Shown here: positions 18,238 to 33,074 of the stretch, piece after piece
Layout of the letters: each line of letters opens with the position of its first letter
Position numbering within the stretch: the first letter of the stretch is position 1
Virus record (IMG/VR): IMGVR_UViG_3300006155_000013
Span: 10,535 to 74,534 of that record
DNA length: 64,000 nt
Strand: one strand, 5' to 3'
Origin: a virus
Lineage: Duplodnaviria > Caudoviricetes
Translations under genes and position numbers: made by a program
The notes under the pieces: generated by a model
Told to the model about the DNA's origin: nothing
Databases searched by the model: none
What the model saw: the letters and a program-made list of their open reading frames with translations, nothing else

Positions 18238-19632
18238 TTAAGGCCGGAAAAGGATCGTGATCTGCCGCGTGGGATGGACAAGTATCTTATCCAACGCCGA
18301 CCGCCAAAAGGCCTGCTTATCGGTCCTTCCCAGTTCCTGGTATGCGCTCTGCCATCCTTGATAGAAGATCGACAGCAACCGGTCCGCAGTTGGCACGGCG
18401 GCGGGCACACTGCGCTCTTCTATCGTCAGGGCGTCCAGCTGCGCGGTTAATGCTTCATAATCCTTTCGGTACAGCTCCAAATCTATTATAGCATCAACAT
18501 ACAGATCTTTCAAGCGGGAAAGCCTCTTTTTTAACTTGGTACGCTCCTCCTGGAAATTCTTTGCCGGCCTCCCGGCGGACGCGGTCTGCTCCAGCTGATA
18601 GCCGAATTGCCGCAGCTCTGCATCCACGTTCTGCAAGAGATAATCCTCCACCACGGTCTCCCGGATGTTGACATCGTTGGCGCAGTCCCCGTTATTATAC
18701 CGCCCGCGGCAGTTGTAGGCGATGCCGCTGCGCCACTCTCCCGACTTGACACGGTAGTTATTTGTATGAGACCCGTACCGCCGCCCGCACTCGGAGCAGA
18801 AGATGATCCCCGCAAAGAGATAGACCCGGTCTGCATCGGTCCTGCGCTCCGCACGGCGGCGGTTGGTGGAAATTTCGTCAAACTGCTCCTGCGTGATATA
18901 CGCCGGGCACATCCCCTCCACGCCCTCGAAGCACCCGCAGTACGCCTCCTTGGTCAGCATGAGCCGGGACAGGTAGTAGGTGAAGAGCACCCCGCAGCGG
19001 GCTTCCGTGGCTCTACGGGCCTGTTCAATGGATCGGGTGGCCAGGAAGCGCTCAAAAAAGCAGGACACCGCCGCCTCCGTCTCCGGATCCTTGACCACCT
19101 TCTTTCCCTCGATCTTGTACCCCGTCGGGACCTTGCCGGTGCAGGGCTCCTGCCGCTCCTTTTTGGAGGCGAACACCGCCTTGATCCGCTCGCTGGTGCG
19201 GTCCGCCTCGTCCTGGGCCACGCTGAGCATGATGTTGATCTTCAGACGGCCCGAGGCGGTAGAGGTGTCGTAGTCCTCGTGGATGGTCTTCCAGTCTACG
19301 CGGTGGCGCTCCAGGATTTCCTGGACCTTGTAATATTCAGCTATGTTCCTAAACCAGCGGTCCAGCTTGGTGAAGACAACCAAGTCAATCAGGCCGGTCT
19401 CCACGTCCGAGAGCAGCCGCTGAAGCTCCGGACGCTTCGCCGCGCTTTTGCGTGCGGAGATACCGGCATCAATGTAGTGCCCGGCCACCTGGACCCCTGC
19501 CGTTTCCGCCCAGGCGTCCAGAGCCTCCCGCTGGGCCTCGATGGACAGGCCGTGGACCGCCTGCTCTTCTGTGCTGACGCGGATGTACAGCGCGGCTCGG
19601 GCGGCGGGAACGATGCCTTTTTCTGTTTTCAT
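18238..19632 (-). CDS. int: Large serine integrase
   Basis: AALYIRVSTEEQ catalytic motif, KLDRWFR, recombinase domain, CSECG...YNC...C zinc ribbon, coiled coil. Confidence 0.95.
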   Translation of the reverse strand: MKTEKGIVPAARAALYIRVSTEEQAVHGLSIEAQREALDAWAETAGVQVAGHYIDAGISARKSAAKRPELQRLLSDVETGLIDLVVFTKLDRWFRNIAEYYKVQEILERHRVDWKTIHEDYDTSTASGRLKINIMLSVAQDEADRTSERIKAVFASKKERQEPCTGKVPTGYKIEGKKVVKDPETEAAVSCFFERFLATRSIEQARRATEARCGVLFTYYLSRLMLTKEAYCGCFEGVEGMCPAYITQEQFDEISTNRRRAERRTDADRVYLFAGIIFCSECGRRYGSHTNNYRVKSGEWRSGIAYNCRGRYNNGDCANDVNIRETVVEDYLLQNVDAELRQFGYQLEQTASAGRPAKNFQEERTKLKKRLSRLKDLYVDAIIDLELYRKDYEALTAQLDALTIEERSVPAAVPTADRLLSIFYQGWQSAYQELGRTDKQAFWRSALDKILVHPTRQITILFRP

Positions 19633-19634
19633 GG

Positions 19635-19746
19635 TTGCATTCCTCCTATAAAATGTGATAATATAGGAGAAGTGATAGGCGTTGCAATCTTATCACTTCT
19701 CCTTGAACCGTCTCCGGTGCTGGCGCACCGGGGACGGTTTTTTATT
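19635..19746 (+). ncRNA. Cassette A: antisense promoter plus two-hairpin sRNA opposite the integrase leader
   Basis: TTGCAT-N16-(TGT)GATAAT 19635-19662; 13-bp stem 19665-19703; 15-bp stem 19706-19739 with T-tract. Confidence 0.6.
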
Positions 19747-20080
19747 GCGCTTTTTTCAGCTCGTTGACGTCTGTACGCAGACGCTTGATAGAATCCTTCA
19801 TCATGGGCACGTCGCCCGCTAGTTCATACATACGGTCGTTGTCGGCCTTTTTCTTCAACTGCTCCATGATTGCTTCATGACCCTCGTAGAGCGCCTGGAG
19901 CCGGGGCAGGACCACGCCCTCCTGAGTGACGGCTACGCGGGTCAGGGTATCCTGCATCTCGTCCAGACGCTCTCCTTGTTGGGCCTGGGTGGCTTTCAGC
20001 TCTGCGACATCGCCTTTCAGTCCTGCGACATCGCCTGTCAGCTTTGTCAGCATCTGCAAAATCTTCTCTTCGTTGTTCAT
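19742..20080 (-). CDS. Coiled-coil hypothetical protein
   Basis: RBS GAAAGGAG; heptad pattern. Confidence 0.7.
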   Translation of the reverse strand: MNNEEKILQMLTKLTGDVAGLKGDVAELKATQAQQGERLDEMQDTLTRVAVTQEGVVLPRLQALYEGHEAIMEQLKKKADNDRMYELAGDVPMMKDSIKRLRTDVNELKKAQ

Positions 20081-20125
20081 GGTGTGCTCCTTTCTATGTA
20101 CCCCGCCGGGGAGGCGGGGGCTTTT

Positions 20126-20566
20126 TTATGCCGGTTTTGTTTCGCTGGAGGCGGAGGAAGCTGATCCGCCTGCCGCCCGTCTCTTCTCTTCAAGGATTTC
20201 CCGGTAGTACTCCTCCGCTTCGGCGCGGGCCTCTGTCTCGTAGTCTGTGGGGACAGGGGTGTCCGTACCAGCGGGCGGGGCGGGAGTGGTTGTTTCCGTT
20301 TTGGAAATAGCCGCCGGGGCGGGGGTGGCCGCCGGAGGAGTGGCAATGGAATTGATCAGTCGTTTTACAGCGGAACGGTCGGCTTCACTCAAATGTAGAT
20401 AACCCAAGATGATACGTTGGTCCAGCTCATCCAGGTCAAACTCTCCAACAATCTGGGCGATTTGCGATTCCGGTACGCTACGGAACATCTCGCCCTTGCC
20501 GGTGCGAAGCCAAGTTTCGTTGACATTGAACTCCCGGCAGATGGAGAATATGACCGCCTCAGACAT
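20126..20566 (-). pseudogene. N-terminally truncated repressor paralog lacking the HTH
   Basis: Begins at SEAVIFSICREFNVNETWLRTGKGEMF, homologous to residues ~45 onward of 20733-21398; may still be translated. Confidence 0.65.
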
Positions 20567-20645
20567 AGGAGGCGCTAGAGGCTCGAAAACTTTAGCACCT
20601 CCTTGACCGTCTCCGGTGTTGGCAGCACCGGGGGCGGTTTTTTAT
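20566..20645 (+). promoter_or_regulatory. Cassette B: truncated two-hairpin module (no promoter visible)
   Basis: ACCGTCTCCGGTG-TTGGCAG-CACCGGGGGCGGT-TTTTTATT, near-copy of cassette A terminator. Confidence 0.6.
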
Positions 20646-20732
20646 TCTCCTGCGTCTATTTCGGTGGCTTCCCTAAGTACCGGGCCAAGTCAATGACCTT
20701 GCCCCAGTCCCTTGTCTGGCAGGGCGGGGGCT

Positions 20733-21398
20733 TTATTTTGCCTGCTTTGTTCCACCACTCCCAGTATCGCTTTGTGAAGCTGAGGATTCTGCCGCCCGTA
20801 TCTTTTCTTGAAGGATCTGTTGATAGAACTCATCCGCTTCAGCACGGGCTTCCTGTTCGGCCTTAGTCCGTGCCGGGGTGATCTCCTCTGATACCTCAGA
20901 CCCTTGCTGCATTTTAGAAAAATACTCTTGTATTGCGGCCCTTTTTGCATCCTCTGCATATGCCAACGCTTCCTCTATTGAAGGGTATCCCATTTCTGTT
21001 TTCAGAAGTTCCTCCGGCTTTTTGTCGCCAACCGATTTCATCAGCACACGGTAAAAGAACGCCCGGATGGCTTTCCTGTTGTTGGGTGTCAAATGAAGGT
21101 ACTCATCCACCAGCGCCTCATCAAAGGGATCCAAATAGAAATCGACCGCAAGCTCCTCCAAAGCCGTGTTGGGGGCTTTAGTGAACATTTCCCCCTTCCC
21201 AGTGCGGAGCCAGGTTTCGTTGACGTTGAATTCTTTACAAATTAAGGAAATTACTGAATTGCTTGGACCGTTCCGGTCAATTTCATAACTTGCAACAGTA
21301 TTTCGTTTCATACCAATACGATCAGCAAATCCTTGCTGTGTAAGGTCTAGTGCCCTGCGTAACTTTTTGATTCGCTGGCTGATTGTTTCGATCTGCAT
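20733..21398 (-). CDS. CI-like XRE repressor paralog
   Basis: RIKKLRRALDLTQQGFADRIGMKRNTVASYE; RBS AAGGAGG before ATG 21398. Confidence 0.88.
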   Translation of the reverse strand: MQIETISQRIKKLRRALDLTQQGFADRIGMKRNTVASYEIDRNGPSNSVISLICKEFNVNETWLRTGKGEMFTKAPNTALEELAVDFYLDPFDEALVDEYLHLTPNNRKAIRAFFYRVLMKSVGDKKPEELLKTEMGYPSIEEALAYAEDAKRAAIQEYFSKMQQGSEVSEEITPARTKAEQEARAEADEFYQQILQEKIRAAESSASQSDTGSGGTKQAK

Positions 21399-21414
21399 TT
21401 TATCCTCCTTAAAA

Positions 21415-21786
21415 TTATTTTGCCAAAGCAAGAGCGAAGCGCGCCGCCGCCTGCAACTCTTCCTCGCTCATAGCGGCCAAAGCCGAGAGGAAGCGGTACC
21501 GGATGTTCCCCGGTTCATCGCACAGTGCCAAGTCTACAAAGGCGGAGATTTCATCGTTTGCGGTCCTCTTGATGAACATTTCCCCCTTCCCAGTGCGGAG
21601 CCAGGTTTCACTTATTTTAAATTCACGGCAGACACCTAGCAGTAGTTGGTCAGAAGTATTTCGTTTTCCAGATTCTATAAGTGCAATAGTGTTTTGCTTT
21701 ACACCAATACGCTCAGCAAATGCCTGCTGAGTAAGGTCCAAAGCCTTACGCAGTTTTTTTATGCGTAAATTGATGGTTTCGTTCAA
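21415..21786 (-). CDS. CI-like XRE repressor (promoter-proximal)
   Basis: TTG start, G-rich RBS; RIKKLRKALDLTQQAFAERIGVKQNTIALIESG. Confidence 0.85.
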   Translation of the reverse strand: MNETINLRIKKLRKALDLTQQAFAERIGVKQNTIALIESGKRNTSDQLLLGVCREFKISETWLRTGKGEMFIKRTANDEISAFVDLALCDEPGNIRYRFLSALAAMSEEELQAAARFALALAK

Positions 21787-21816
21787 ATTGCAATACCCCC
21801 CCTTCTGGATAAATTG

Positions 21817-21845
21817 ACAATAGCACAAAAGCGTTGGTTTGTCAA
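21817..21845 (-). promoter_or_regulatory. Leftward (lysogenic) sigmaA promoter
   Basis: TTGACA-N17-TATTGT with TGn extension on minus strand. Confidence 0.75.
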
Positions 21846-21853
21846 CAAAAAGA

Positions 21854-21903
21854 TTGAATCCGACAAAAAGCCTCTTGACAAAAGACGGATTCAAGCATAT
21901 AAT
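21854..21903 (+). promoter_or_regulatory. Rightward (lytic) sigmaA promoter with candidate operator half-sites
   Basis: TTGACA(21875)-N17-TATAAT(21898); inverted TTGAATCCG (21854) / CGGATTCAA (21886). Confidence 0.85.
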
Positions 21904-21937
21904 AGTCGGAGAAACAACAAAAGGAGGTGAACACAAA

Positions 21938-22111
21938 ATGCGGAAACCGAATACGGAAGCCATTTCCAAGGAGGATATGGACTTTATCCGTTTGATGGCG
22001 GCAATGCCCACAGAGGCAAAAATTCTGACAAGGGGCCTGATCCTGGGCCTTGGCCTTTCGGAAAAGATCCAGAAGGGAGGCAATCCGGAAACGGCACGGC
22101 CCAGCGCGTGA
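21938..22111 (+). CDS. Small helical protein in the Cro position, no HTH
   Basis: RBS AAGGAGGTG; FIRLMAAMPTEAKILTRGLILGL. Confidence 0.7.
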   Translation: MRKPNTEAISKEDMDFIRLMAAMPTEAKILTRGLILGLGLSEKIQKGGNPETARPSA

Positions 22112-22155
22112 AACCACCCCATGTGGACCGGGCGTAGGAAGGGAGGTGAAAGAAA

Positions 22156-22347
22156 ATGGCGAATCATCTGGACTATCTGGAAGAGACGGGAATGACGGCA
22201 AGCGAGTGGGAAAAAGCCACAAACGCCGCCGCCCAGGATCTGGTGGATGTCCTTCGCAAAAGAGGCTGCACCTACCATGACGCAAAAGCGGCCCTCAGCA
22301 AGGCCGACACCATTTTGGAGCGGGCCATCCTGAAGGCCAAGGTTTGA
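22156..22347 (+). CDS. Hypothetical protein
   Basis: RBS GGAGGTG; 63 aa. Confidence 0.65.
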   Translation: MANHLDYLEETGMTASEWEKATNAAAQDLVDVLRKRGCTYHDAKAALSKADTILERAILKAKV

Positions 22348-22372
22348 TCTATAAAAATAAGGAGGACACCGA

Positions 22373-22930
22373 ATGAACGAACTGAAAATCTTCGAGCATC
22401 CCAAATTTGGGAGAATCCGCACCATCATCGAGGATGGTAAGACCCTGTTCTGCGGTAAGGACGCCGCGTTGGCGTTGGGGTACAAGAATCACATCAAGGC
22501 ATTGGCAGACCATTGCAAGGGGGTAACGAAACGCGACCTCCCCACCAACGGTGGAGCCCAGACTATGAATTTCATCCCCGAAGGCGACCTCTGCCGCCTG
22601 GCCGCAAAATCCGAGCTGCCCGGTGCAAGCGAGTTCGAGAGCTGGATTTTCGATGAAGTGATTCCCGCTATCCTGCGGACTGGTACCTATACGGTGCCCG
22701 GAGCGGCCCCAAAGTTGCTTTACCTTCCCGAAGGCGTTTCTTTGAACGGACTGGCAAAGCTGCTGACCATCACGCGACGGATGATGCTGGACATGGGCAA
22801 AGGCCCGAACGAAATCGGTTCCGTAGCAAAGGGACTGTTTGACAGCTGCGGTGTGCCCCTTGCCCCAGCGTTCTACAACGAGCTCCCCGGACAGACCAGT
22901 CTTTTCGACTATCCCGCTCTGGAGAGATAA
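22373..22930 (+). CDS. Bro-N domain antirepressor
   Basis: MNELKIFEHPKFGRIRTI...FCGKDAALALGY...FIPEGDLCRL...FESWIFDEVIPAILRTG. Confidence 0.9.
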   Translation: MNELKIFEHPKFGRIRTIIEDGKTLFCGKDAALALGYKNHIKALADHCKGVTKRDLPTNGGAQTMNFIPEGDLCRLAAKSELPGASEFESWIFDEVIPAILRTGTYTVPGAAPKLLYLPEGVSLNGLAKLLTITRRMMLDMGKGPNEIGSVAKGLFDSCGVPLAPAFYNELPGQTSLFDYPALER

Positions 22931-23042
22931 AAAGCGCCCCGCCGGGTGCGCCAACATCCGACAGGGCAAGCGAGACCAAAACATACGAAAAATCAGCCTC
23001 TACCCTCCATTATACCGGAGGCCGGGGCGGAAAGCAAGGAGG
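22931..23042 (-). ncRNA. Cassette C: antisense promoter, sRNA and terminator
   Basis: Minus strand TTGCTT(23037-23032)-N17-TATAAT(23014-23009); GU-stabilised hairpin plus T-tract at ~22965-22927. Confidence 0.65.
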
Positions 23043-23047
23043 GCCCC

Positions 23048-23260
23048 ATGCGGGAGAACCTGAAAGCCGCCCGCAAGGCGGCGGGACTGACACAGCAGGC
23101 TATGGCGGAGAAACTATGTGTAGGACTACGGCATTACAAAAAAATCGAGAGCGGAGAAACACTTGGTAGTATCGATTTGTGGGACAAACTGGAGGATATT
23201 ACTGGGATTCATCAGCGGATTTTGCGAGAAATTCGTCTCGGCAAAGAAGATAGTCTGTAG
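23048..23260 (+). CDS. Cro-like XRE protein
   Basis: LKAARKAAGLTQQAMAEKL...HYKKIESGE. Confidence 0.85.
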   Translation: MRENLKAARKAAGLTQQAMAEKLCVGLRHYKKIESGETLGSIDLWDKLEDITGIHQRILREIRLGKEDSL

Positions 23261-23426
23261 AAACGTTCAGGATATCTGCTATAAGTACAAGTCCCTCAAG
23301 CGTTGGGTTTGCGTGTCCGCTTTCGTATTTTCGGTAGTTTCGCAACCCGGTTTGAAGCGCATCCGCCATTTGTTGAGCCGTAATCCCCCGTTCTTTTCGC
23401 GTTTTATTCAATCTTTCACCTAGCAT
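23199..23426 (-). CDS. XRE regulator, convergent and overlapping with Cro-like gene
   Basis: RLNKTRKERGITAQQMADAL...YRKYESGHANPT...STDYLL; RBS AGGAGG. Confidence 0.85.
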   Translation of the reverse strand: MLGERLNKTRKERGITAQQMADALQTGLRNYRKYESGHANPTLEGLVLIADILNVSTDYLLCRDEFLAKSADESQ

Positions 23427-23447
23427 AAAATTTTCCTCCTAAAAGTC

Positions 23448-23507
23448 TTGACAGTGCCATAATAATACACTATAATGAAGCTGTCAGTAAGTGCCATAGT
23501 ATGGCAC
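23448..23507 (+). promoter_or_regulatory. Consensus sigmaA promoter with operator
   Basis: TTGACA(23448)-N17-TATAAT(23471); perfect palindrome GTGCCATA-G-TATGGCAC 23491-23507 and a half-site GTGCCATA in the spacer. Confidence 0.85.
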
Positions 23508-23529
23508 CATCAGAAAGGAGGACAAGCAA

Positions 23530-23739
23530 ATGGTAATCACCTACGAACGGCTACGGGAACTCCGGTTCCTGGGCGTAACACCGGAGACCGAGTGCTGTGC
23601 GAACTGCGAGCACTTCCACCAGCACTACAACAAAGACGGGGGCCTGATTTTCGCAGGGCACTGCTGCTATCCGCGCATGAAGCCCAGGAAAGGCTACGAC
23701 CTCTGCAAGTATTTCAAGGGCAAGGAGGACACCGAATGA
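23530..23739 (+). CDS. Small Cys-rich protein
   Basis: CANCEHF...GHCCYP...LCKYF. Confidence 0.65.
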   Translation: MVITYERLRELRFLGVTPETECCANCEHFHQHYNKDGGLIFAGHCCYPRMKPRKGYDLCKYFKGKEDTE

Positions 23740-24272
23740 AAGTACAAGACTACCACGGCAAGAGCGTCATCGACAGCCGCGAGGTGGCGGAGATGGTGGA
23801 GAAGCAGCACAAGAACCTTCTCGCCGATATCCGCGGGTACCTCAAAATCATGGAGAAGGCTAACGGGCTGAATTTTCAGCCGGTCGATTTCTTCATTCCC
23901 AGTACCTACCAGGACAACAAAGGCGAGGACCGTCCCTGCTACCTCATCACGAAGAAGGGCTGCGACATGATCGCCAACAAGCTGACCGGCGAGAAGGGCG
24001 TGCTGTTCACCGCCGCCTATGTGACGGCCTTCGAGGACATGAAGCGGGCGTTGGACGCCCCCAACCGCGCCCCGGAGGTCTCCCCCAGCGGGCTCGCAAA
24101 GCTCATCACCATCACCCGTCGGATCATGCTGGACATGGGCGGCACCCCGGTCCAGGTCGGCACGATGGCCCGGGATGTATTCAAGGCGTACAACTTCCCG
24201 GTTCCCATTGCGCTGGACAAGCAGTTGGAGGGACAGATCAGCTTCTTCGATCCGCCTCTGCTGGGCAACTAA
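23736..24272 (+). CDS. Rha-family regulator/antirepressor
   Basis: IDSREVAEMVEKQHKNLLADIR...CYLITKKGCDMIANKLTGEKGVLFTAAYVTAFEDM. Confidence 0.9.
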   Translation: MKVQDYHGKSVIDSREVAEMVEKQHKNLLADIRGYLKIMEKANGLNFQPVDFFIPSTYQDNKGEDRPCYLITKKGCDMIANKLTGEKGVLFTAAYVTAFEDMKRALDAPNRAPEVSPSGLAKLITITRRIMLDMGGTPVQVGTMARDVFKAYNFPVPIALDKQLEGQISFFDPPLLGN

Positions 24273-24386
24273 AAAAGCGCCCCTGCGGGTGCTGCCAACA
24301 CTCGCAGGGGCAAGCGAGACCAAAACATACGAAAAATCAGCCTCTACCCTCCATTATACCGGAGGCCGGGGCGGAAAGCAAGGAGG
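24273..24386 (-). ncRNA. Cassette D: antisense promoter, sRNA and terminator (79 bp identical to cassette C)
   Basis: TTGCTT(24381-24376)-N17-TATAAT(24358-24353); 13-bp hairpin plus T-tract on minus strand. Confidence 0.65.
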
Positions 24387-24391
24387 AAATT

Positions 24392-24607
24392 ATGAATTTT
24401 CACATCACGCTCAGCCCGGAGCAGTTCGAGTTTCTGGACGGACTGCTGGGGGATGTGGTCCAGCTTTATGAGCACCAGGCCGCCGCTCTGGCCTGCCTGG
24501 ACGGCGAGGCGGCCCGGGACCTGGCCCAGGAGCGGCTGGATGCGTCCCAGAATGCGGCGGAGATCGCGTGGCTGCTGGCTAACACCAAGCCTGTGGAAGG
24601 AGCGTAG
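24392..24607 (+). CDS. Hypothetical protein
   Basis: RBS AAGGAGG; 71 aa. Confidence 0.65.
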   Translation: MNFHITLSPEQFEFLDGLLGDVVQLYEHQAAALACLDGEAARDLAQERLDASQNAAEIAWLLANTKPVEGA

Positions 24608-24611
24608 AGAG

Positions 24612-24818
24612 ATGGGACGTAGGGAAAAGCCGGTCACGTTCAAGATCGTTGTCCCGCCTAGCGCGGCTAGGGCCGAACAAATGAGCCGCGACCTGCTGGA
24701 GATGGTGATGAAAAAGGAAGGGATCACGGCCAAGATCACCCCCGTGAAGCGCGGGCCCGGAGACCCGATTCTGACCATCGTCCCGCCGGAGACGGCGGGG
24801 AAATCTGCGAGTGCGTGA
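24612..24818 (+). CDS. Hypothetical protein
   Basis: ORF filling the gap between neighbours. Confidence 0.5.
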   Translation: MGRREKPVTFKIVVPPSAARAEQMSRDLLEMVMKKEGITAKITPVKRGPGDPILTIVPPETAGKSASA

Positions 24819-24834
24819 GAGGAGGGACACGACC

Positions 24835-25020
24835 GTGAAGCTTTACAAATGCGAGACTATCGCCCAGTTCAAAATCGGCATGTGGCTGGTGGAGCAGGGC
24901 ATCGAGCGGGAGGACATCCTGACGGCAGAGCTCTTGGGGCCCAACGAGGTCAAGATCACAAATCCAGCCGGACAGTATATGCACATCCGGTGGATGGGAG
25001 ACCATGCGGAGATTGTCTGA
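24835..25020 (+). CDS. Hypothetical protein
   Basis: GTG start after GGAGG; KLYKCETIAQFKIGMWL. Confidence 0.55.
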   Translation: MKLYKCETIAQFKIGMWLVEQGIEREDILTAELLGPNEVKITNPAGQYMHIRWMGDHAEIV

Positions 25021-25033
25021 GGAGGTGATCAGG

Positions 25034-25177
25034 ATGTACATCGTCAAGTAGTGCGACTGCGAGGGGAACCTCTATGAGCGGAAGTTCCGCACTATCCGCG
25101 CCGCCCGTGCAGAGGCGGAAGAGCTCCGAAAAAAGTACGATGGCGTGGAGATCGAGAAGGTGCCGGACCGGCGGTAG
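25034..25177 (+). pseudogene. Small gene with in-frame TAG at codon 6
   Basis: RBS GGAGGTG; MYIVK*CDCEGNLYERKF...; frame stays open for 41 further codons. Confidence 0.55.
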
Positions 25178-25180
25178 GCA

Positions 25181-25293
25181 CAAAGTTCCCCGGCAGGTAC
25201 CCTAACACCTGCCGGGGGATGGAGGAAGCCGGGATTATCAGGTCCAGCCTCTTACTATGATTTTAGCACGGTTCGGGGCAGATTGCAAGGAGG
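25181..25293 (-). ncRNA. Cassette E: antisense promoter, sRNA and terminator
   Basis: TTGCAA(25288-25283)-N17-(TGC)TAAAAT(25265-25260); 11-bp perfect stem 25188-25217. Confidence 0.6.
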
Positions 25294-25298
25294 AACGA

Positions 25299-25901
25299 AT
25301 GGAAGCAGAAAAATATTTGGTGCGCACACGCGCCCTCCGCTCCCAGAGGGATGTGTGGAAACAGGCGGCGGTGGGGGTGCTGGCCCTGTCCATCACGGGC
25401 AACATCGGGCTGTACGGCATCGCCTGTTCCCGGGAGGCGAGACACCGGGAGGAGACGGCACAGCTTCGCACAGAGCTCCGGCACGTGGAGGCGGTCCGGG
25501 ACGACGCCCTGGAGGAGCTGGGCCGCATGGCCAACGACTACGCCCGGGAGAAGCTGGCCAGGCAGGAGCAGGCGGAGGCGTATGAGGCCGTGGGGGCCTG
25601 GGAGTACGTCGGAGAGTGTACCATCACCGCCTACTGCCCCTGCGCGGAGTGCTGCGGGCGCTGGGCGGACGGCGTGACGGCCTCCGGTCTTCCCGCAACG
25701 CCCGGCGTCGTCGCCGTGGACCCAGAAGTGATCCCGCTGGGGAGTACGGCCGTCATCGACGGTCAGCGCTACCTCGCCGCGGACACCGGGAGCGGCGTGG
25801 AGGGCCTGCATATCGACATCTGCATGGGCTCTCATGAGGAGACCGTGGCGCACGGGGTCCGGACGGCGGACGTGTGGGTGGCAAAGGAGGCGCAGCCATG
25901 A
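25299..25901 (+). CDS. 3D-domain (MltA-like) membrane-anchored protein
   Basis: TM helix, coiled coil, ITAYCPC...TASG...VAVDP..IPLGS...AADTG...IDI. Confidence 0.85.
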   Translation: MEAEKYLVRTRALRSQRDVWKQAAVGVLALSITGNIGLYGIACSREARHREETAQLRTELRHVEAVRDDALEELGRMANDYAREKLARQEQAEAYEAVGAWEYVGECTITAYCPCAECCGRWADGVTASGLPATPGVVAVDPEVIPLGSTAVIDGQRYLAADTGSGVEGLHIDICMGSHEETVAHGVRTADVWVAKEAQP

Positions 25902-26146
25902 GCGGGATTTTCCAGCAGCTGAAGGAGGAGGCCCTCTACGCGCAGCGGTCCCTGTCCACAGAGCTGCTGTACCAGACCTACGGCGCGGCCAAGATGGCCC
26001 GGCATCTGGGGTTCATCACGAAGGAATCCTTTCTGGAGCTCAGCAGCATGACGGTCCGGTTCATGAACACAGACCTCGCTTATCTCCGTCAGAAACAGAT
26101 CGAATTTGCCGCGCTGCGCGGCATGAAGGAGGGCGCCCATGAGTGA
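25898..26146 (+). CDS. Hypothetical protein
   Basis: ATGA overlap; YQTYGAAKMARHLGFITKE. Confidence 0.6.
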   Translation: MSGIFQQLKEEALYAQRSLSTELLYQTYGAAKMARHLGFITKESFLELSSMTVRFMNTDLAYLRQKQIEFAALRGMKEGAHE

Positions 26147-26831
26147 GAGCAAAGCGGAGCGGGCCAGGGCGCTCCGGTATAAGCGGGGAGCGCTGGCCTC
26201 CATGGGCTTCGAGTTCCTTCGCGCTGATCTGGACGAAATCCGCGAGGCCTGCGACACCATCCACTGGTGGACCGACCAGGATGACGAGACCCTGCTAAAC
26301 GCCTTGGACGGGGACGACGAAGACGTCTGGGAGTTCAAAATGGCCTTCGCCCACCTGGAGGCCAGGGCGGACGAGTTGCTTGAGACCATTTATGAGCTGT
26401 GCCGGTATGAGGATGATTTCGGTCAGGTCTACGATGACTGCACCGTGGCCCTCATCGGAAACCGCTACCGCACCATCGGCTATGACGGCTTCGAGGAGGA
26501 CTACTACGCCCTCACCGGCTATGAGCAGGAATTGGCCCAGACCGAATCGGGGAAGCGTCTCATGCGTAGGACCAAAGCGGAGATCCTATCCATCATCGGG
26601 CAGTGCTTTGGCATCCTTATCGCTTTCCTGGACCTGCGTCAGCAGTACGACTACCTCAAGGCCACCTTCGACATCCTGCGGGATGAGAACACCTCCATGC
26701 TCCAGCAGGTCAAGGAGATCGATGCCGCTTACAAGGCGATGGTCACGGCGGACTGGTCCGCACGGTCTGAGGCGGAAAAGAAGTTTGACCGCCTGCTGTC
26801 TGCCTTGCCGGACCGTGTGTGGGTGGAGTGA
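26139..26831 (+). CDS. Conserved phage hypothetical protein
   Basis: 230 aa acidic ORF with RBS. Confidence 0.7.
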   Translation: MSESKAERARALRYKRGALASMGFEFLRADLDEIREACDTIHWWTDQDDETLLNALDGDDEDVWEFKMAFAHLEARADELLETIYELCRYEDDFGQVYDDCTVALIGNRYRTIGYDGFEEDYYALTGYEQELAQTESGKRLMRRTKAEILSIIGQCFGILIAFLDLRQQYDYLKATFDILRDENTSMLQQVKEIDAAYKAMVTADWSARSEAEKKFDRLLSALPDRVWVE

Positions 26832-26948
26832 GCGGGACCATGACCATCGGCCTGATCTCCGTGGACGGCCAACCGGGTCAACAAAAAAAGTACGTTCAAA
26901 GCCTGTACCTGGGAGGAATTTCGGAGCGGGAAGAGGGAGGTGATTCAG

Positions 26949-28248
26949 GTGGAGCATTTTGGAGACATCAGGAGGCTGAACGGGTACGAGCTGCCAGCGA
27001 TCGATGTGGTCATTGGTGGTTCACCGTGTTAGCCAGGACCTGTCTGTGGCGGGAAAACGGGCGGGCCTCGCCGGGGAACGGAGCGGCCTGTTCATGGAAC
27101 AGATCAGGATCATCAAGGAAATGAGGGACGCGGATGCAGGCAGAGGACGGACAGGTCTCTTTGTTCGACCACGATTCATGGTGTGGGAGCAGGTCCCAGG
27201 AGCGTTCAGCTCCAAAAAAGGCGAGGACTTCCGGGCCGTCCTTGAGGAGACGGTCCGGATCGCAGAACCGGACGCCCCCGACGTTCCACTACCTCCAAAA
27301 GGAAAGTGGCCAATGGCTGACTGCTGGATGGGGGACGGCTGGTCCGTCGCCTACAGAGTTCTCGACGCACAATTTTGGGGAGTGCCCCAGCGCCGCCGCA
27401 GAATCGCGCTTGTCGCAGATTTTGGAGGACACGCCGCACCAGAAATACTATTTGTCCGCCAAGGCGTGTGCGGGGATCCTCCGGCGGGCGGAGCGGCGGG
27501 GGAAGAAACTGCCGCCGGAACTGGAGGCGGCGCTTATCCGGCAGTCGCGAGAAGCCTGACGGCCCGTCATGACGGGAGCCCGTGCGTGGACCGGGGACCA
27601 AATATTGTTGTGGCCGGATTCAAGCCCCATTCCGGAGTGTCCGCAGGGGGCATAGGGTATCAGGAGGAGACGGCACCTACCATCGACACGGGGAAACCAA
27701 TGGCGGTCTACGATGCCCGGGGAAACGGAGACGGGAAAACTGCATGTACACTGACCGGGGACCACCAGAGCCGGGTGACGGACTACACGGCCATCGTCAT
27801 GCGTCAGCACAACTTCGGCGAGTACCGAGAGGGTGTTGGGACGCTAACTGCGCACAACGGAACACGCCATGCGTCGGAGGCACTTGTAGTGGGCAGGAAT
27901 GTCCGCCGTCTTACTCCCCTGGAATGTGAACGCCTCTAGGGCTACCCGGACGGATGGACCGATATCGGGCCGTGGACGGACAGCGCCGGGAAGCTCCACA
28001 GGGAGAGCAGTGACAGTGCCCGCTATACGGCGCTGGGAAACTCCATCGCCCTGCCGCCATGGAAATGGGTGCTCAAACGACTGTGCGCCTGTTACGAGCG
28101 GAACGCTACCATGGCGAGCCTCTTTGACGGGATCGGCGGCTTCCCGCTGATCTGGGAGCGGCTGAACGGACCGGGTTCCTGCCTGTGGACAAGCGAGATC
28201 GGCGAGTTCCCCGCCGCCGTGACAAAGAAAAGATTTTGCGGAAAGTGA
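26949..28248 (+). pseudogene. Circularly permuted C5 DNA cytosine methyltransferase with a 4-nt insertion (~27030) and a nonsense codon (27937)
   Basis: GDI, GSPC|QDLS, WEQVPG, QRRRRI, RRLTPLECERL*GYPD, GNS, then SLFDGIGGF and SEI at the C-terminus. Confidence 0.85.
27134..27559 (+). CDS. Nested alternative-frame ORF inside the methyltransferase
   Basis: LSQILEDTPHQKYYLSAKACAGILRRAERRGKKLPPEL in the +1 frame. Confidence 0.55.
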   Translation: MQAEDGQVSLFDHDSWCGSRSQERSAPKKARTSGPSLRRRSGSQNRTPPTFHYLQKESGQWLTAGWGTAGPSPTEFSTHNFGECPSAAAESRLSQILEDTPHQKYYLSAKACAGILRRAERRGKKLPPELEAALIRQSREA

Positions 28249-28259
28249 GGTGACAGCCG

Positions 28260-28514
28260 TTGAACAAAACAAAAATGCGGCGCTGCAAAAATTTCAACTG
28301 CGATAAAATGCGCGGTCATTACTGCTGCACCGACTGCGACCAAAGGAAGTCGTGCGCCAACCCGTGCCTGAACCACCCCACCCGGTGCGGTCTGTCTGAG
28401 GCCCCGCCGGTGAGGCCGGGACCGGACGGTAAGGGAGTGGCAAAAGCAGGCCCGCCAAGTAAACACACACCTGGCGGGCCAAAGGAAAAAAATAATAGGA
28501 CACCTGCATTATAG
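28260..28514 (+). CDS. Cys-rich (Zn-binding) small protein
   Basis: C-x4-C...CCTDC...CANPC...C; TTG start after GAGGTG. Confidence 0.6.
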   Translation: MNKTKMRRCKNFNCDKMRGHYCCTDCDQRKSCANPCLNHPTRCGLSEAPPVRPGPDGKGVAKAGPPSKHTPGGPKEKNNRTPAL

Positions 28515-28536
28515 CAGGCCGGAAAGGAAAATGCAA
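28442..28536 (-). ncRNA. Cassette F: antisense promoter, sRNA and terminator
   Basis: TTGCAT(28536-28531)-N17-(TGC)TATAAT(28513-28508); 12-bp hairpin 28449-28480 fully paired only on minus strand, plus T-tract. Confidence 0.6.
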
Positions 28537-29852
28537 TGTCGTCAGTAAAAATCACCCAATTTGAGGCGGAGAACGTCAAGCGGATCAAGGCGCTGACGCT
28601 GACGCCGGCGGAAAACGGCCTCACGGTCATTGGGGGCCGCAACAACCAGGGCAAAACAAGCAGTCTGGACGCCATCGTCTGGGCCCTGGGCGGGGAGCGC
28701 TACAGGCCCTCCCAGGCGGTCCGGGAGGGCTCGGTGATCCCGCCCAGGATGCGCATGGAGCTGAGCAACGGCGTCGTGGTGGAGCGCTCCGGGAAAAACA
28801 GCGACCTGAAGGTCACCGACACCCGGGGCCGCAGGGCCGGACAGACCCTGCTCAACTCCTTTGTGGAGGAGTTGGCCCTCAATATGCCCAAATTCATGCA
28901 GTCCACCAGCAGGGAAAAGGCCGATACCCTCCTGCGCATCATCGGTCTGGAGGACCAGGTGCGCGCGCTGGAGCGGGAGGAAAAAGAGCTCTATGACCGG
29001 CGGCGGGCCGTGGGTCAGCTCTACGAGCAGAAAGCCAAGTATGCCGAGGAGCTCCCCTCGTGGCCCGACGCCCCCTCGGAGCCCGTCTCCGCCCTGGAGC
29101 TCATCCACCGTCAGCAGGACATCCTCGCCCGCAACGGCGAGAACCAGCGCAAGCGGGACCGGGCCAAAAAGCTGGACGAGCAGTGCGCCATCGCAAAGGA
29201 GCAGATGGAGGACCTGGAGAAGCGCCTCAGAGAGGCGCGGGAGAAGTACCTGAGCCTTTGCGCCGACTGTGAGACCGCCCGGCGGGACGCCCTGGACCTC
29301 CAGGACGAATCTACCGAGGAGCTGGAGCAGAGCCTCCGGGACGTCGAGGCGGTCAACGTCAAAGTCCGCACCAACCAGGACAAGGCCCGGGCCGTGGCGG
29401 AGGCGAAGCAGTACAGCGACCAGTACGCCGCCCTCACCGAGGAGCTGGAGACGGTGCGGCAGAAGAAGCTGGACCTCCTCAATGGCGCGGACCTGCCCCT
29501 GCCGGGGCTCTCGGTGGAGGACGGGGAGCTCACCTACCAGGGCCGCCCCTGGGACTGCATGAGCGGGAGCGACCAGCTCAAGGTCTCCACCGCCATCGTC
29601 CGGGCGCTGAAGCCTGAGTGCGGCTTCGTGCTCCTGGACAAGCTGGAGCAGATGGACTTGCAGACCCTCCGGGAGTTCTCCGCCTGGATGGAGGCCGAAG
29701 GGTTGCAGGGCATCGCCACCCGGGTCAGCACCGGGGAGGAGTGCAGTATCATCATTGAGGACGGGTGCGCAACTGCGCCCGCAGGGGACGGCCTCTGCGC
29801 CGTCCCGCCCCCCGCGCCCGTCCAGCCCGCCTGGCAGAAAGGAGTATTCTAA
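28536..29852 (+). CDS. SMC/SbcC-like AAA ATPase with long coiled coil
   Basis: GGRNNQGKT Walker A; SGS signature; LLDKLE Walker B. Confidence 0.85.
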   Translation: MSSVKITQFEAENVKRIKALTLTPAENGLTVIGGRNNQGKTSSLDAIVWALGGERYRPSQAVREGSVIPPRMRMELSNGVVVERSGKNSDLKVTDTRGRRAGQTLLNSFVEELALNMPKFMQSTSREKADTLLRIIGLEDQVRALEREEKELYDRRRAVGQLYEQKAKYAEELPSWPDAPSEPVSALELIHRQQDILARNGENQRKRDRAKKLDEQCAIAKEQMEDLEKRLREAREKYLSLCADCETARRDALDLQDESTEELEQSLRDVEAVNVKVRTNQDKARAVAEAKQYSDQYAALTEELETVRQKKLDLLNGADLPLPGLSVEDGELTYQGRPWDCMSGSDQLKVSTAIVRALKPECGFVLLDKLEQMDLQTLREFSAWMEAEGLQGIATRVSTGEECSIIIEDGCATAPAGDGLCAVPPPAPVQPAWQKGVF

Positions 29853-31476: not shown

Positions 31477-33074
31477 TGGAGCTGAGACCCTATCAGGAGG
31501 AGGCCCGGCGGGCCGTGGAGGGGGACTGGGAGGGGGATTTTCTGCGGACCCTCCTGGTGCTCCCCACCGGGTGCGGGAAGACCATCGTCTTCTCCAAGAT
31601 CATTGAGGATATGGTCCGGCAGGGGGACCGGTGCCTCATCCTCGCCCACCGTGGAGAGCTCCTGGACCAGGCCGCCGACAAGCTCCTGAAGGCCACGGGC
31701 CTGCGCTGCGCCGTAGAAAAAGCGGAGGAGACCTGTCTCGGGAGCTGGTACCGGGTGGCGGTGGGGTCGGTGCAGAGCCTGCAAAGGCCCTCCCGCCTCG
31801 CCCGGTTTGAGGAGGACCACTTCGGCTGTATCGTCGTGGACGAGGCCCACCACGTCCTCTCAGACGGCTATCAACGGGTCCTGGAGCACTTCCCAGACGC
31901 GAAGGTGCTGGGCGTTACAGCCACCCCGGACCGGGGGGATATGAGAAACCTGGGGCAGTACTTCGAGCATTTGGCCTACGAGTACACGCTCCCCAGGGCC
32001 ATCCGGGACAGGTACCTGTGCCCTATCAAGGCCGTCACCATCCCTCTGCAACTGGACCTCTCAGGCGTGGGCGTCCAGGGAGGAGACTTCAAATCATCAG
32101 ACATTGACACCGCCCTGGACCCCTACTTATACCAGATCGCCTCAGAAATGCGGCAGTACTGCAAGGACCGGAGGACCGTGGTGTTCCTGCCCCTGGTGAA
32201 GACCTCCCAAAAGTTCCGCGACATCCTGGAGCAGAACGGCTTCCGGGCGGCGGAGGTCAACGGGAACAGTCAGGACCGGGCGGAAATTCTCCGGGACTTC
32301 GAGGCGGGACGCTACGACGTGCTCTGCAACTCCATGCTCCTCACCGAGGGCTGGGACTGCCCGGCGGTGGACTGCGTGGTGGTCCTGCGTCCTACGAAGG
32401 TGAGAAGCCTCTACAGTCAGATGGTGGGGCGGGGTACGAGGCTCCATCCCGGCAAAGAGGACCTGCTCCTCCTGGACTTCCTGTGGCACACCGAGCGCCA
32501 CGAGCTGTGCCGTCCGGCGTCGCTGATCTGCGAGGACGCGGCGGTGGCGCAGAAAATGACGGAGATCATCGAGAAGGCGGGCGCACCCCTGGACATCGAA
32601 GAGGCGGAGCGTCAGGCCGGGGAGGACGTGGTGGCGGCGCGGGAGGAATCCCTCGCCAAACAGCTCTCCGAGATGCGCTCCAGAAAGCGGAAGCTGGTGG
32701 ACCCCCTGCAATTCGAGATGTCCATCGCAGCGGCGGACCTCTCCGGGTACGTCCCCGCCTTTGGCTGGGAGATGGGCCCGCCTACGGAGAAACAGCGCTC
32801 AGCCCTGGAGAAATTCGGCATCTTCCCGGACGAGATCGATAGCGCGGGAAAGGCGTCGGCGCTCCTGGACCGGCTCTCAAAGCGCCGGACAGAGGGGCTC
32901 TCCACGCCCCGGCAGATCCGGGTGCTGGAGAACTTCGGCTTCCGCAACGTTGGGACCTGGCCTTTCCAGGACGCCAAGCATATGATCGACCGCATGGCCG
33001 CGGGAGGCCGGGGCGGGCGGTGGAGAGTGCCCTCCGGCGTTGACCCGGCGACATATGTTCCTGTGGGGATGTAA
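31476..33074 (+). CDS. SF2 DEAH helicase
   Basis: LPTGCGKT, DEAHH, TATP, QMVGRGTR. Confidence 0.92.
   Translation: MELRPYQEEARRAVEGDWEGDFLRTLLVLPTGCGKTIVFSKIIEDMVRQGDRCLILAHRGELLDQAADKLLKATGLRCAVEKAEETCLGSWYRVAVGSVQSLQRPSRLARFEEDHFGCIVVDEAHHVLSDGYQRVLEHFPDAKVLGVTATPDRGDMRNLGQYFEHLAYEYTLPRAIRDRYLCPIKAVTIPLQLDLSGVGVQGGDFKSSDIDTALDPYLYQIASEMRQYCKDRRTVVFLPLVKTSQKFRDILEQNGFRAAEVNGNSQDRAEILRDFEAGRYDVLCNSMLLTEGWDCPAVDCVVVLRPTKVRSLYSQMVGRGTRLHPGKEDLLLLDFLWHTERHELCRPASLICEDAAVAQKMTEIIEKAGAPLDIEEAERQAGEDVVAAREESLAKQLSEMRSRKRKLVDPLQFEMSIAAADLSGYVPAFGWEMGPPTEKQRSALEKFGIFPDEIDSAGKASALLDRLSKRRTEGLSTPRQIRVLENFGFRNVGTWPFQDAKHMIDRMAAGGRGGRWRVPSGVDPATYVPVGM

Follow-up and report, generated by a model that had tools for sequence, protein, structure and literature searches.

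The window, a stretch of 64 kb analysed over its full length, comes from a prophage of a mouse-gut Oscillospiraceae bacterium. The strands of its genes were checked with Pfam (serine recombinase, HTH_3, Bro-N, Rha, 3D, C5 methylase and AAA_23), and the gaps between the integrase and the early genes, in both the leftward (repressor-to-integrase) and the rightward (early) operon, are occupied by six predicted RNA genes, units A to F. Each unit consists of a sigma-A-type promoter, a transcript of 60-90 nt and a terminator hairpin. As the first-pass annotation had claimed, the -35 box abuts or overlaps the Shine-Dalgarno (SD) sequence or start codon of the next gene in each unit, and the T-runs lie on the antisense strand (weakly in E), where they overlap or come after the stop codon of the preceding gene; the promoter boxes that it named for A and C to F are all present, with the TGn motif in A, E and F. 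The units and the neighbouring elements are:

19635-19746, plus strand: unit A, promoter TTGCAT-16-GATAAT with TGn at 19635-19662
20520-20646, plus strand: unit B, weak promoter TTGACA-18-GAGAAT (12.8 bits) at 20520-20549
22929-23037, minus strand: unit C, promoter TTGCTT-17-TATAAT at 23037-23009
24272-24381, minus strand: unit D, promoter TTGCTT-17-TATAAT at 24381-24353
25180-25288, minus strand: unit E, promoter TTGCAA-17-TAAAAT with TGn at 25288-25260
28441-28536, minus strand: unit F, promoter TTGCAT-17-TATAAT with TGn at 28536-28508
19660-19687, minus strand: possible integrase promoter, TTGCAA-16-TATATT
20101-20119, plus strand: terminator-like hairpin with a T-run behind it, antisense to the leftward operon
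20701-20731, plus strand: second terminator-like hairpin, just past the stop of the HTH_3 gene 20733-21431 (minus strand)

Unit A lies directly upstream of the serine-integrase start codon (19630-19632, minus strand) and reads away from the integrase. Its predicted RNA, of about 78 nt and with two hairpins, extends roughly from 19665/19669 to the T-run at 19741-19746; alternative pairings of its promoter boxes score similarly. The possible integrase promoter has its -35 box in the loop of the unit A 5' hairpin and a -10 box overlapping that of unit A, and the two promoters, if the former is real, would be divergent and overlapping. The unit had been described as opposing int: it is indeed antisense to the flanking genes, but in such a back-to-back arrangement it would diverge from the integrase mRNA instead of being antisense to it, and only read-through transcripts would be opposed. 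The promoter of unit B is the least secure of the six, as it is located inside conserved coding sequence, a conserved motif of which gives rise to its -35 box. The body of this RNA (20567-20645) comprises a 5' hairpin and the terminator, and if transcription started at 20556 the RNA would be able to pair with both the leader and the start codon of a 146-aa gene (20126-20566, minus strand). In two relatives (L125 and L137), the same body lies upstream of int and follows a 19.7-bit promoter.

In the rightward operon, units C (RNA of about 74 nt, 23002-22929) and D (about 76 nt, 24346-24272) are 90% identical. Unit C is placed between the Bro-N antirepressor gene (stop 22930) and an HTH_3 gene (start 23048), and unit D between the Rha antirepressor gene (stop 24272) and a 71-aa gene starting at 24392. 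Unit E (about 73 nt, 25253-25180) precedes the 3D-domain gene (start 25300) and is kept in L011, L090 and L141-L143. The -35 box of unit F overlaps the first base of the AAA_23 start codon, and its RNA of about 60 nt has a U-rich, unstructured 5' part followed by the terminator (28480-28449). As for the two additional terminator-like hairpins, no strong promoter was found near 20101-20119, and the sole promoter-like site upstream of 20701-20731 is weak (20619-20648, 11.2 bits).

A strand-blind detector, searching for a sigma-A promoter followed after 15-130 nt by a compact hairpin with a T-tail, was applied to the two strands of the entire window and returned A to F only, all six antisense to the flanking genes. 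Promoter-like sites of at least 15 bits are rare (only 11 in the 128 kb scanned), and 60 shuffles in 100-nt blocks of the 17-31 kb region gave a mean of 0.1 units and a maximum of one, against the six observed. With the same thresholds, OOP of phage lambda was detected, and nothing besides it in the cro-cII-O stretch.

The folding of the hairpins depends on the strand. G-U pairs had been said to favour the antisense strand in A, B, C and F, with D as the exception, and the antisense/sense counts agree (A 2/0, B 4/0, C 3/1, D 1/1, E 1/0, F 2/0). In a set of 51 distinct units, drawn from the window and from related phages, the terminator hairpins contain 136 antisense-strand G-U pairs versus 6 for the sense strand. 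Folding is more stable on the antisense side in 45 of these units and less so in 3, and the sense-strand hairpins are on average 5.9 kcal/mol weaker. Better folding of the antisense strand is also seen in the transcribed 5' part, a region that plays no role in the detector (41 units versus 11), and the region of the inverted repeat flanking the -10 box folds strand-symmetrically (75 versus 67 G-U pairs). The predicted hairpins are, in their pairing, RNA structures of the antisense strand. In two relatives (L141 and L142), variants of the unit D hairpin add G-U pairs on this same strand.

From sequence and predicted structure, units A to E are paralogues of one two-hairpin sRNA family, new here, whose 5' hairpin begins, at the predicted +1, with a purine run resembling an SD and which ends in a GC-rich terminator hairpin. 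The first-pass annotation was right about the common architecture of A to F, but wrong in treating A to E as merely alike. A covariance model, together with a comparison with Rfam, had been proposed as a check; model R2 matches A to E on the predicted strand and from the predicted transcription starts (A, 19665-19745, 76 bits; B, 95.8 bits; C, 36.1 bits, E-value 6e-6; D, 42.1 bits, 3e-7; E, 25.1 bits, 1e-3), while unit F is not matched and falls outside the family. In the R2 alignment, 97% of the cells are paired and double (compensatory) changes occur in 19/27 pairs, 13 of the 14 pairs of the 5' hairpin among them, although an alignment fitted to the model is biased towards the model structure; none of 500 shuffles was as good, and slid controls were about 50% paired. 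The family is absent from Rfam 15, whose models match none of the units even at a permissive threshold.

Members of the family are present in 20 of the 151 sampled genomes of the host family and in one cultured phage, Flavonifractor phage Castelnaud; unit A has a counterpart in an Oscillospiraceae MAG (L136). At 11 of the 14 top loci, a promoter of 10-20 bits ends 0-10 nt before the match, even though the model holds no promoter. The gene behind the RNA promoter was an integrase in all ten genome loci tested (nine tyrosine, one serine), and in other Oscillospiraceae genomes the family usually lies immediately in front of the integrase gene.

The same architecture recurs beyond the family. In 55 non-redundant sources (the window and 54 loci), a promoter lies 15-60 nt upstream of 60 of the 267 compact terminators, where 13 would be expected, and promoter-terminator distances peak at 20-60 nt. 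Some relatives carry an equal architecture of unrelated sequence at the same gene junctions, namely after Rha (L011) and before a 48%-identical integrase (L129), and different antisense units occupy the position of unit F in front of some AAA_23 homologues of 67-72% identity (L105, L110 and L113). Many other AAA_23 homologues have neither gap nor unit there, so the units are dispensable. Related phages also present a different unit family between a weak RHH (Arc-like) gene and Rha. Altogether, the earlier proposal of short antisense units of about 60-95 nt with their own promoter and terminator is strongly supported by the strand-specific folding, the covariation, the recurrence in relatives and the promoters beside the model matches.

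Similar arrangements have been described in other phages. OOP of lambda, a 77-nt RNA, lowers the expression of a lysis-lysogeny regulator through RNase III. Like the units, it starts from a sigma-70 promoter on the start of the downstream early gene, runs antisense to the early operon across the intergenic gap and stops at an intrinsic terminator located at the 3' end of the preceding gene. In contrast, the units have neither sequence nor structural homology to OOP and do not involve a cII homologue; OOP covers about 50 nt of the cII coding sequence where the units overlap a stop codon only, and lambda has one unit instead of six. The sar RNA of P22 (68/69 nt, immI region) is an antisense RNA transcribed from the intercistronic gap of an antirepressor operon, and C and D likewise reside in antirepressor operons; however, they are downstream and not upstream of the antirepressor genes, and sar pairs with the ant ribosome-binding site, whereas C to F miss the next one and B would cover a start codon. 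A further precedent of phage antisense RNA is aQ. In the SF370 prophages of Streptococcus pyogenes, a Firmicute, Spy_sRNA779816 and Spy_sRNA1774740/1775122 occupy the gap that separates the integrase gene from the next gene of the prophage. Each has a promoter and a terminator predicted for it, and one is a Northern-confirmed 89-nt RNA. They resemble unit A and the wider family in position and make-up, but spread in multiple copies to other intergenic gaps was not reported for them. Rfam includes candidate structured RNAs near integrase genes of phages and mobile elements (int-alpA, RF02996, and Lacto-int), and the int-alpA match in L040 sits elsewhere than the antisense unit of that locus. 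IS10 (RNA-OUT, pIN/pOUT), pT181 and pIP501 use small stable stem-loop antisense RNAs whose promoter overlaps or opposes that of a gene for a recombinase or for replication; IS10 has converging promoters and RNAs that overlap the ribosome-binding site, whereas the putative integrase promoter here is divergent. Attenuation systems need a sense-strand terminator, which is missing here, the units having no sense-strand T-run. The first-pass annotation knew of no prior description, and the family is indeed missing from Rfam and from a 2025 review of phage sRNAs, but integrase-adjacent prophage sRNAs were already detected experimentally in S. pyogenes; the novelty is lower in view of these, OOP and sar.

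By analogy, OOP-like cis-antisense damping combined with promoter competition would be the likeliest function. Except for B, the RNAs do not include the ribosome-binding site, SD or start codon of the next gene, and any effect on this gene must therefore be indirect. A mechanism in which the sRNA frees an anti-SD segment that then masks the SD was rejected for the window units, as in the folding model only D drops (0.68 to 0.40), with A, E and F unchanged and C slightly up; the same model works for the different unit family in related phages.

The promoters could, with rather low probability, be the functional elements and the RNA a by-product: a strong extended -10 promoter seated on the SD or start codon, or overlapping the integrase promoter back to back, would compete with sense transcription or block it (sitting-duck interference or occlusion), and the terminator would keep the antisense transcript short, sparing upstream genes. 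That the -35 box abuts the SD or start codon in almost every unit fits this reading, as does the integrase-direction element. In about 12 of the 25 family members, this element uses the same -10 region and places its -35 box within the hairpin loop (sRNA nt 16-22); the sole loop sequence conserved in the 5' hairpin reads as such a box on the opposite strand. Nevertheless, the integrase-direction promoters have modest scores (8-16 bits), and the pairing of the 5' hairpin outlasts complete replacement of its sequence, which, together with the better folding of the 5' part on the RNA strand, argues for selection on the RNA itself.

Action in trans is likewise unlikely. The RNAs would then confer superinfection immunity to incoming related phages, form a pool cross-regulating several modules through the common terminator loop, or reach host mRNAs with CU-rich anti-SD stretches. 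STnc6030 of phage BTP1 is a known case of a prophage antisense RNA excluding the phage that encodes it, A to D have the top and loop of the terminator hairpin in common (13 identical bases in B and D), two loci, C and D, make the same RNA, and the promoters lack a copy of the switch operator and so are probably constitutive. On the other hand, one relative (L109) uses the loop flipped, which counts against a fixed loop code, and a perfect cis target is built into every unit.

The units could also mark module boundaries, as portable cassettes moving with gene modules and offering homology for inter-phage recombination with little regulation. We regard this as improbable: C and D do bracket a 1.34-kb secondary immunity module following paralogous antirepressor C-termini, close relatives have one or two copies, and a B-type body replaces the A-type body before a 96%-identical integrase, but the conserved promoter geometry, the strand-specific G-U pairs and the compensatory changes are left unexplained. 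A role as boundary markers is compatible with the preferred explanation, not exclusive of it. Finally, sense-strand mRNA structures (3'-end stabilisers, RNase III sites or SD switches) with incidental antisense boxes, or chance in AT-rich gaps, are very improbable, since the inverted repeat flanking the -10 box, which folds only in the sense mRNA because the antisense start is in its loop, and its strand symmetry are outweighed by the weaker sense hairpins, the T-runs of the antisense strand, the recurrence of fixed-distance promoters in independent genomes and the near-absence of units from shuffles.

We return, with moderate confidence, to antisense RNA genes that combine OOP-like damping with promoter competition and set a threshold on sense expression. 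In the lysogen, the unit promoters would fire constitutively, and each RNA would pair with the stretch between cistrons in polycistronic mRNA arising from read-through or leaky transcription, the duplex being cut, as with OOP, or uncoupling the downstream cistron. The polymerase-occupied antisense promoter may also compete or collide with sense transcription at the ribosome-binding site, and at the integrase gene it may compete with the overlapping divergent promoter. Throttling of the integrase, Cro-like, 3D-domain and recombination genes during lysogeny, as first proposed, is plausible: these genes would stay off at low sense transcription, and the strong early transcription following induction would overrun the block. 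The family, which in related genomes directly precedes integrase genes, probably damps leaky expression as OOP does.

The six antisense units of prophage 2, in which a promoter, a short RNA and a terminator are read against the flanking phage genes, are real features of this sequence. The description that suits them best is that of a new small RNA (sRNA) family, widespread and linked to integrases, which is found here at five intergenic positions (units A-E); the sixth unit (F) has the same design but is unrelated. The IMG/VR virus record of 74.5 kb contains two prophages in tandem, and units A-F are located in the second of these, in its lysogeny and early region; its integrase has its nearest bacterial matches in mouse-gut Oscillospiraceae MAGs.

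Genes (Pfam assignments) and antisense units of the lysogeny and early region of prophage 2
18238-19632, minus strand: large serine recombinase
minus strand: three small genes (among them two for HTH_3 repressor-like proteins) and one more HTH_3 gene
plus strand: Bro-N antirepressor, Rha antirepressor, HTH_3 gene, 3D-domain protein, C5 methylase, AAA_23 and AAA_24
19635-19746, plus strand: unit A
20520-20646, plus strand: unit B
22929-23037, minus strand: unit C
24272-24381, minus strand: unit D
25180-25288, minus strand: unit E
28441-28536, minus strand: unit F

The first-pass annotation, made from the sequence alone, had read these gaps as antisense cassettes with sigma-A promoters, and every promoter box that it listed is present at its coordinate. 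A strand-blind detector, requiring a sigma-A position-weight score of 12 bits or more followed, after 15-130 nt, by a compact hairpin of -14 kcal/mol or lower with a T-rich tail, recovered exactly six units when both strands of the 64-kb window were scanned; these are A-F, all antisense to the genes on either side. Only 11 promoter-like sites of at least 15 bits occur in the 128 kb scanned, and the three found between 24 and 31 kb correspond to the antisense promoters of units D, E, and F. Shuffling the 17-31 kb region in 100-nt blocks (60 shuffles) gave a mean of 0.1 units and a maximum of one. The same detector found no unit in the rest of the record, including the 10.6 kb outside the window (the first 10.6 kb, in prophage 1), nor in any late region. 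As a positive control, the cro-cII-O stretch of phage lambda, scanned with unchanged detector and thresholds, yielded one unit, which is the OOP gene with its promoter pO. The antisense promoters of A-F score between 12.8 and 17.8 bits and, in A and C-F, the -35 box lies on the Shine-Dalgarno (SD) sequence or start codon of the downstream gene. The terminator hairpins range from -21 to -30 kcal/mol, and their T-runs overlap or follow stop codons, the tail of E being weak.

The strand on which these RNAs fold agrees with this orientation. The G-U pairs of the hairpins had been said to favor the antisense strand in A, B, C, and F, with D as the exception, and the counts bear this out (antisense/sense: A 2/0, B 4/0, C 3/1, D 1/1, E 1/0, F 2/0); in close relatives, the D-type hairpin has extra G-U pairs on the antisense strand. 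Pooling 51 distinct units, namely those of the window and those detected in 77 loci around Rha homologues, the terminator hairpins contain 136 G-U pairs in the antisense reading vs. 6 in the sense reading, and the antisense fold is stabler in 45 units and less stable in three (mean difference 5.9 kcal/mol), an asymmetry larger than the effect built in by a detector that itself folds the antisense strand. The transcribed 5' part, which plays no role in detection, folds better antisense in 41 of 56 units and better sense in 11, once units from AAA_23 and integrase loci are added.

Each of the predicted RNAs A-E comprises a 5' hairpin and a terminator hairpin, whereas that of F has an unstructured U-rich 5' part and a terminator only. 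A and B have common ends, and the stem of the 5' hairpin is wholly replaced between them with full compensation; relatives with a 96%-identical integrase carry a B-type body in the place of A, with a stronger promoter. When the units were aligned with MAFFT, promoter and 5' hairpin came out scrambled and, therefore, a covariance model was seeded on three near-identical sequences and the others were realigned to it. This first model, made of three B-type sequences alone, matches A, D, and C, as well as E-type copies in relatives, over their full length and on the right strand. After one realignment round, the second model scored B at 95.8, A at 76, D at 42.1, C at 36.1, and E at 25.1 bits, all on the predicted strand, and the alignments of A-E start at the transcription start predicted from the -10 box. 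In the model alignment, 97% of the cells are paired and double changes are found in 19 of 27 pairs (13 of 14 in the 5' helix), values reached by none of 500 shuffles and somewhat inflated by an alignment fitted to structure; in slid controls, about 50% of the cells are paired. F is not matched by the family model. A-E are more than alike in architecture and form one RNA family. The annotation knew of no description of the units as a system in Clostridia phages, and no described motif of Rfam 15 matches them: there was no match in 19000-29500 at the gathering threshold or at permissive E-values up to 5, nor was any family matched at the loci of this sRNA family in other genomes (the window and 35 loci in all).

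Searched against other genomes, the covariance model built from the unit copies retrieved further members, with matches at E<=1e-4 in 20 of the 151 genomes that represented the host MAG's family and up to five copies per genome. In 11 of the 14 best loci, the model match is preceded, at a distance of 0-10 nt, by a sigma-A promoter that scores 10-20 bits and in most cases has a TGn extension; this confirmation is not circular, because the covariance model does not include the promoter sequence. An opposite-strand ORF begins 20-32 nt behind the match start in 10 of these 14 loci, and the ORF behind the sRNA promoter is an integrase in all ten loci tested (a tyrosine recombinase in nine of them and a large serine recombinase in the tenth). 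The position directly upstream of the integrase is thus that of A and of the ten genome loci, B-E being located in other gaps of prophage 2. Several family-linked integrases are followed by tRNA genes, as expected at prophage ends. In some other genomes, the integrase-proximal copies may instead be leaders or attenuators of a co-directional gene, since our gene caller, based on third-position GC, is too noisy there to give gene strands beyond the units; in the window, this reading is excluded because no gene lies downstream of any unit on the unit's own strand.

A megablast search of the region against 50,697 phage records gave no match. The cultured Flavonifractor phage Castelnaud (L146, ON453903), an inducible prophage of a cultured F. 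plautii strain (YL31) from the OMM12 mouse consortium, carries an integrase-upstream unit and a second antisense unit in the early operon. The RNAs predicted for this phage are of about 80 nt (minus strand, about 35817 to 35736) and about 65 nt (plus strand, about 32274 to 32338). The early-operon unit, predicted at 32245-32332 (+), lies under an annotated hypothetical CDS (32239-32490) that may be an over-call. As Castelnaud can be induced in a cultured OMM12 strain, the prediction is directly testable.

Antisense units also recur at equivalent positions with other sequences. In L011, a close relative, the intergenic region after Rha is unrelated in sequence to D and contains an antisense promoter (TTGACA-17-TACAAT), a T-run, and a hairpin in which two G-U pairs form on the antisense strand. 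Different antisense units occupy the F position in some AAA_23 homologues (67-72% identity), and the A position has an antisense unit beside a 48%-identity integrase. In many other homologues, both the gap and the unit are missing, showing that the units are accessory. The window and 54 loci, taken together as 55 non-redundant sources, contain 267 compact terminators; 60 of these are preceded by a promoter at 15-60 nt vs. 13 expected from promoter density, and the promoter-terminator distances peak sharply at 20-60 nt. In many IMG/VR phages, a second large group of units is found some 400 nt upstream of Rha, where it immediately follows a small gene that weakly matches RHH_1 (L020:2504-2604 (-) and about 20 other distinct loci, e.g., L015, L033, L038, L041, and L057), a layout resembling the arc-sar-ant region of P22. 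All nine predicted pairs of its terminator hairpin show compensatory changes (RNAalifold), and the arms of an inverted repeat around its -10 box copy the SD of the downstream gene, varying with it. A third type with the promoter-to-terminator design (L051:240-361 (-), L052:1271-1387 (-), L067:1242-1360 (-)) has a long conserved 5' part of 52-57 nt, common to three otherwise different phages. A match to the Rfam int-alpA RNA (51 bits) was observed in a related phage at L040:1757-1826 (+), which is not the position of the antisense unit of that locus.

Anatomy, strand-specific folding, covariation, and genomic association thus support the structural half of the earlier interpretation; from the sequence, we infer that the units would be expressed and would affect the genes that they oppose. 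The predicted RNAs are complementary to the intercistronic part of a polycistronic mRNA and not to an SD or start codon, B possibly excepted. In A and C-F, about 35 nt separate the predicted transcription start from the SD, with the promoter between them, and B, if transcribed from 20556, would be the only unit to cover a start codon. In P22, sar pairs with the ribosome-binding site of the regulated gene, and the lack of such complementarity makes a sar-like direct block of translation unlikely for A and C-F, although the antirepressor context of the units recalls that of sar. Two mechanisms would fit the geometry: an OOP-like duplex between the unit RNA and the read-through mRNA, and competition or collision with sense transcription by an antisense promoter sitting on the ribosome-binding site. 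About half of the family members examined, mostly integrase-adjacent ones, have a promoter-like element on the opposite strand, with the conserved 5'-hairpin loop as its -35 box and with a -10 box that overlaps that of the sRNA. If this element is real, the integrase and sRNA promoters would be overlapping, divergent, and mutually exclusive, and the sRNA would oppose only read-through transcripts from the repressor operon.

Prophage 2 has two switch regions, each with a perfect consensus sigma-A promoter (TTGACA-17-TATAAT; 21875-21903 (+) and 23448-23476 (+)) opposed by a divergent minus-strand promoter. Directly downstream of the second of these consensus promoters lies a near-perfect 17-bp palindrome (23491-23507, one mismatch at the center base). 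Two HTH_3 genes with significant Pfam matches, 23048-23260 (+) and 23199-23426 (-), are convergent, with a 62-bp overlap of their 3' ends. A secondary switch module of 1.34 kb is bracketed by a segmental duplication (22359-23042 vs. 23722-24386), each copy of which contains an RBS with its start, the C-terminal portion of an antirepressor (from Bro-N on one side and from Rha on the other), and the sRNA unit that follows. Elsewhere in the prophage, a promoter-like site immediately past the terminator of unit A (19764-19794 (+), TTGACG-19-TAGAAT with TGn) could drive transcription antisense across a 112-aa gene up to a terminator-like hairpin (20101-20119), which could produce an antisense RNA about 320 nt long, and a full-length match to the twister-sister ribozyme (RF02681; 63564-63647 (-), 74.8 bits, E 3e-15) is found near the prophage end. 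The palindrome has no second copy in the window and thus none at the antisense promoters, ruling out that these carry this repressor operator and fitting constitutive firing.

Many units have an inverted repeat around the -10 box, with arms often mimicking SD and anti-SD, and in the second group blocking the sRNA-complementary part of the mRNA is predicted by folding to bury the SD in 17 of 38 units and to expose it in none. An sRNA-triggered SD/anti-SD switch is not supported by folding as the mechanism of the window's units, the effect being an observation on these second-group relatives. It seems rather unlikely, though conceivable, that the integrase-linked sRNA is a portable "antisense lock" copied into any intergenic gap, with each copy thresholding the next gene, its SD-like 5' end and anti-SD segments forming a translational switch in the sense mRNA, and its common terminator loops letting one RNA pool couple the integrase, antirepressor, and recombination modules, all of which would amount to an RNA-based layer of lysogeny control and immunity that runs alongside the protein repressor. 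There is a known case of a prophage antisense RNA by which the phage excludes itself, leaving room for a role in trans or in immunity. A type I toxin-antitoxin system is rejected, as the neighbors (integrase, HTH_3, 3D-domain protein, AAA_23, and a non-hydrophobic 71-aa ORF) include no small hydrophobic toxin ORF. Countertranscript-driven attenuation of the pT181/pIP501 type is discarded, no hairpin being followed by a sense-strand T-run, and T4-style sense-oriented promoter/stem-loop cassettes fail on orientation or missing parts.

The closest known architecture is that of lambda OOP, in which a promoter at the start of the downstream gene reads against the operon and an intrinsic terminator lies at the 3' end of the upstream gene. 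In contrast, the sequence and fold of A-F differ from those of OOP, and the upstream genes here are Bro-N, Rha, and unknowns instead of cII. In S. pyogenes SF370, small RNAs with their own promoter and terminator have been found beside prophage integrase genes by RNA-seq and Northern blot. A 2025 review of phage-derived sRNAs contains no example from a Gram-positive or clostridial phage. The kind of element is already known; the novelty lies in the family itself, in its association with integrases from two enzyme classes, and in its having multiplied in a single phage.

Temperate phages are abundant in gut Clostridia and, to our knowledge, there has been almost no study of how they are regulated; those phage antisense RNAs of the textbooks that we are aware of (OOP, sar, and c4) belong without exception to coliphages or phages of Salmonella. 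An sRNA family that is conserved and uncatalogued, located next to integrases from two unrelated enzyme classes, present in about one-eighth of the sampled host-family genomes and in five copies in one phage, offers a concrete target for study. It is also relevant to annotation, a hypothetical protein having been annotated over one unit in the published Castelnaud genome. Finally, this family could help to explain how these prophages silence their integrase and early genes, and how tight their induction threshold is.
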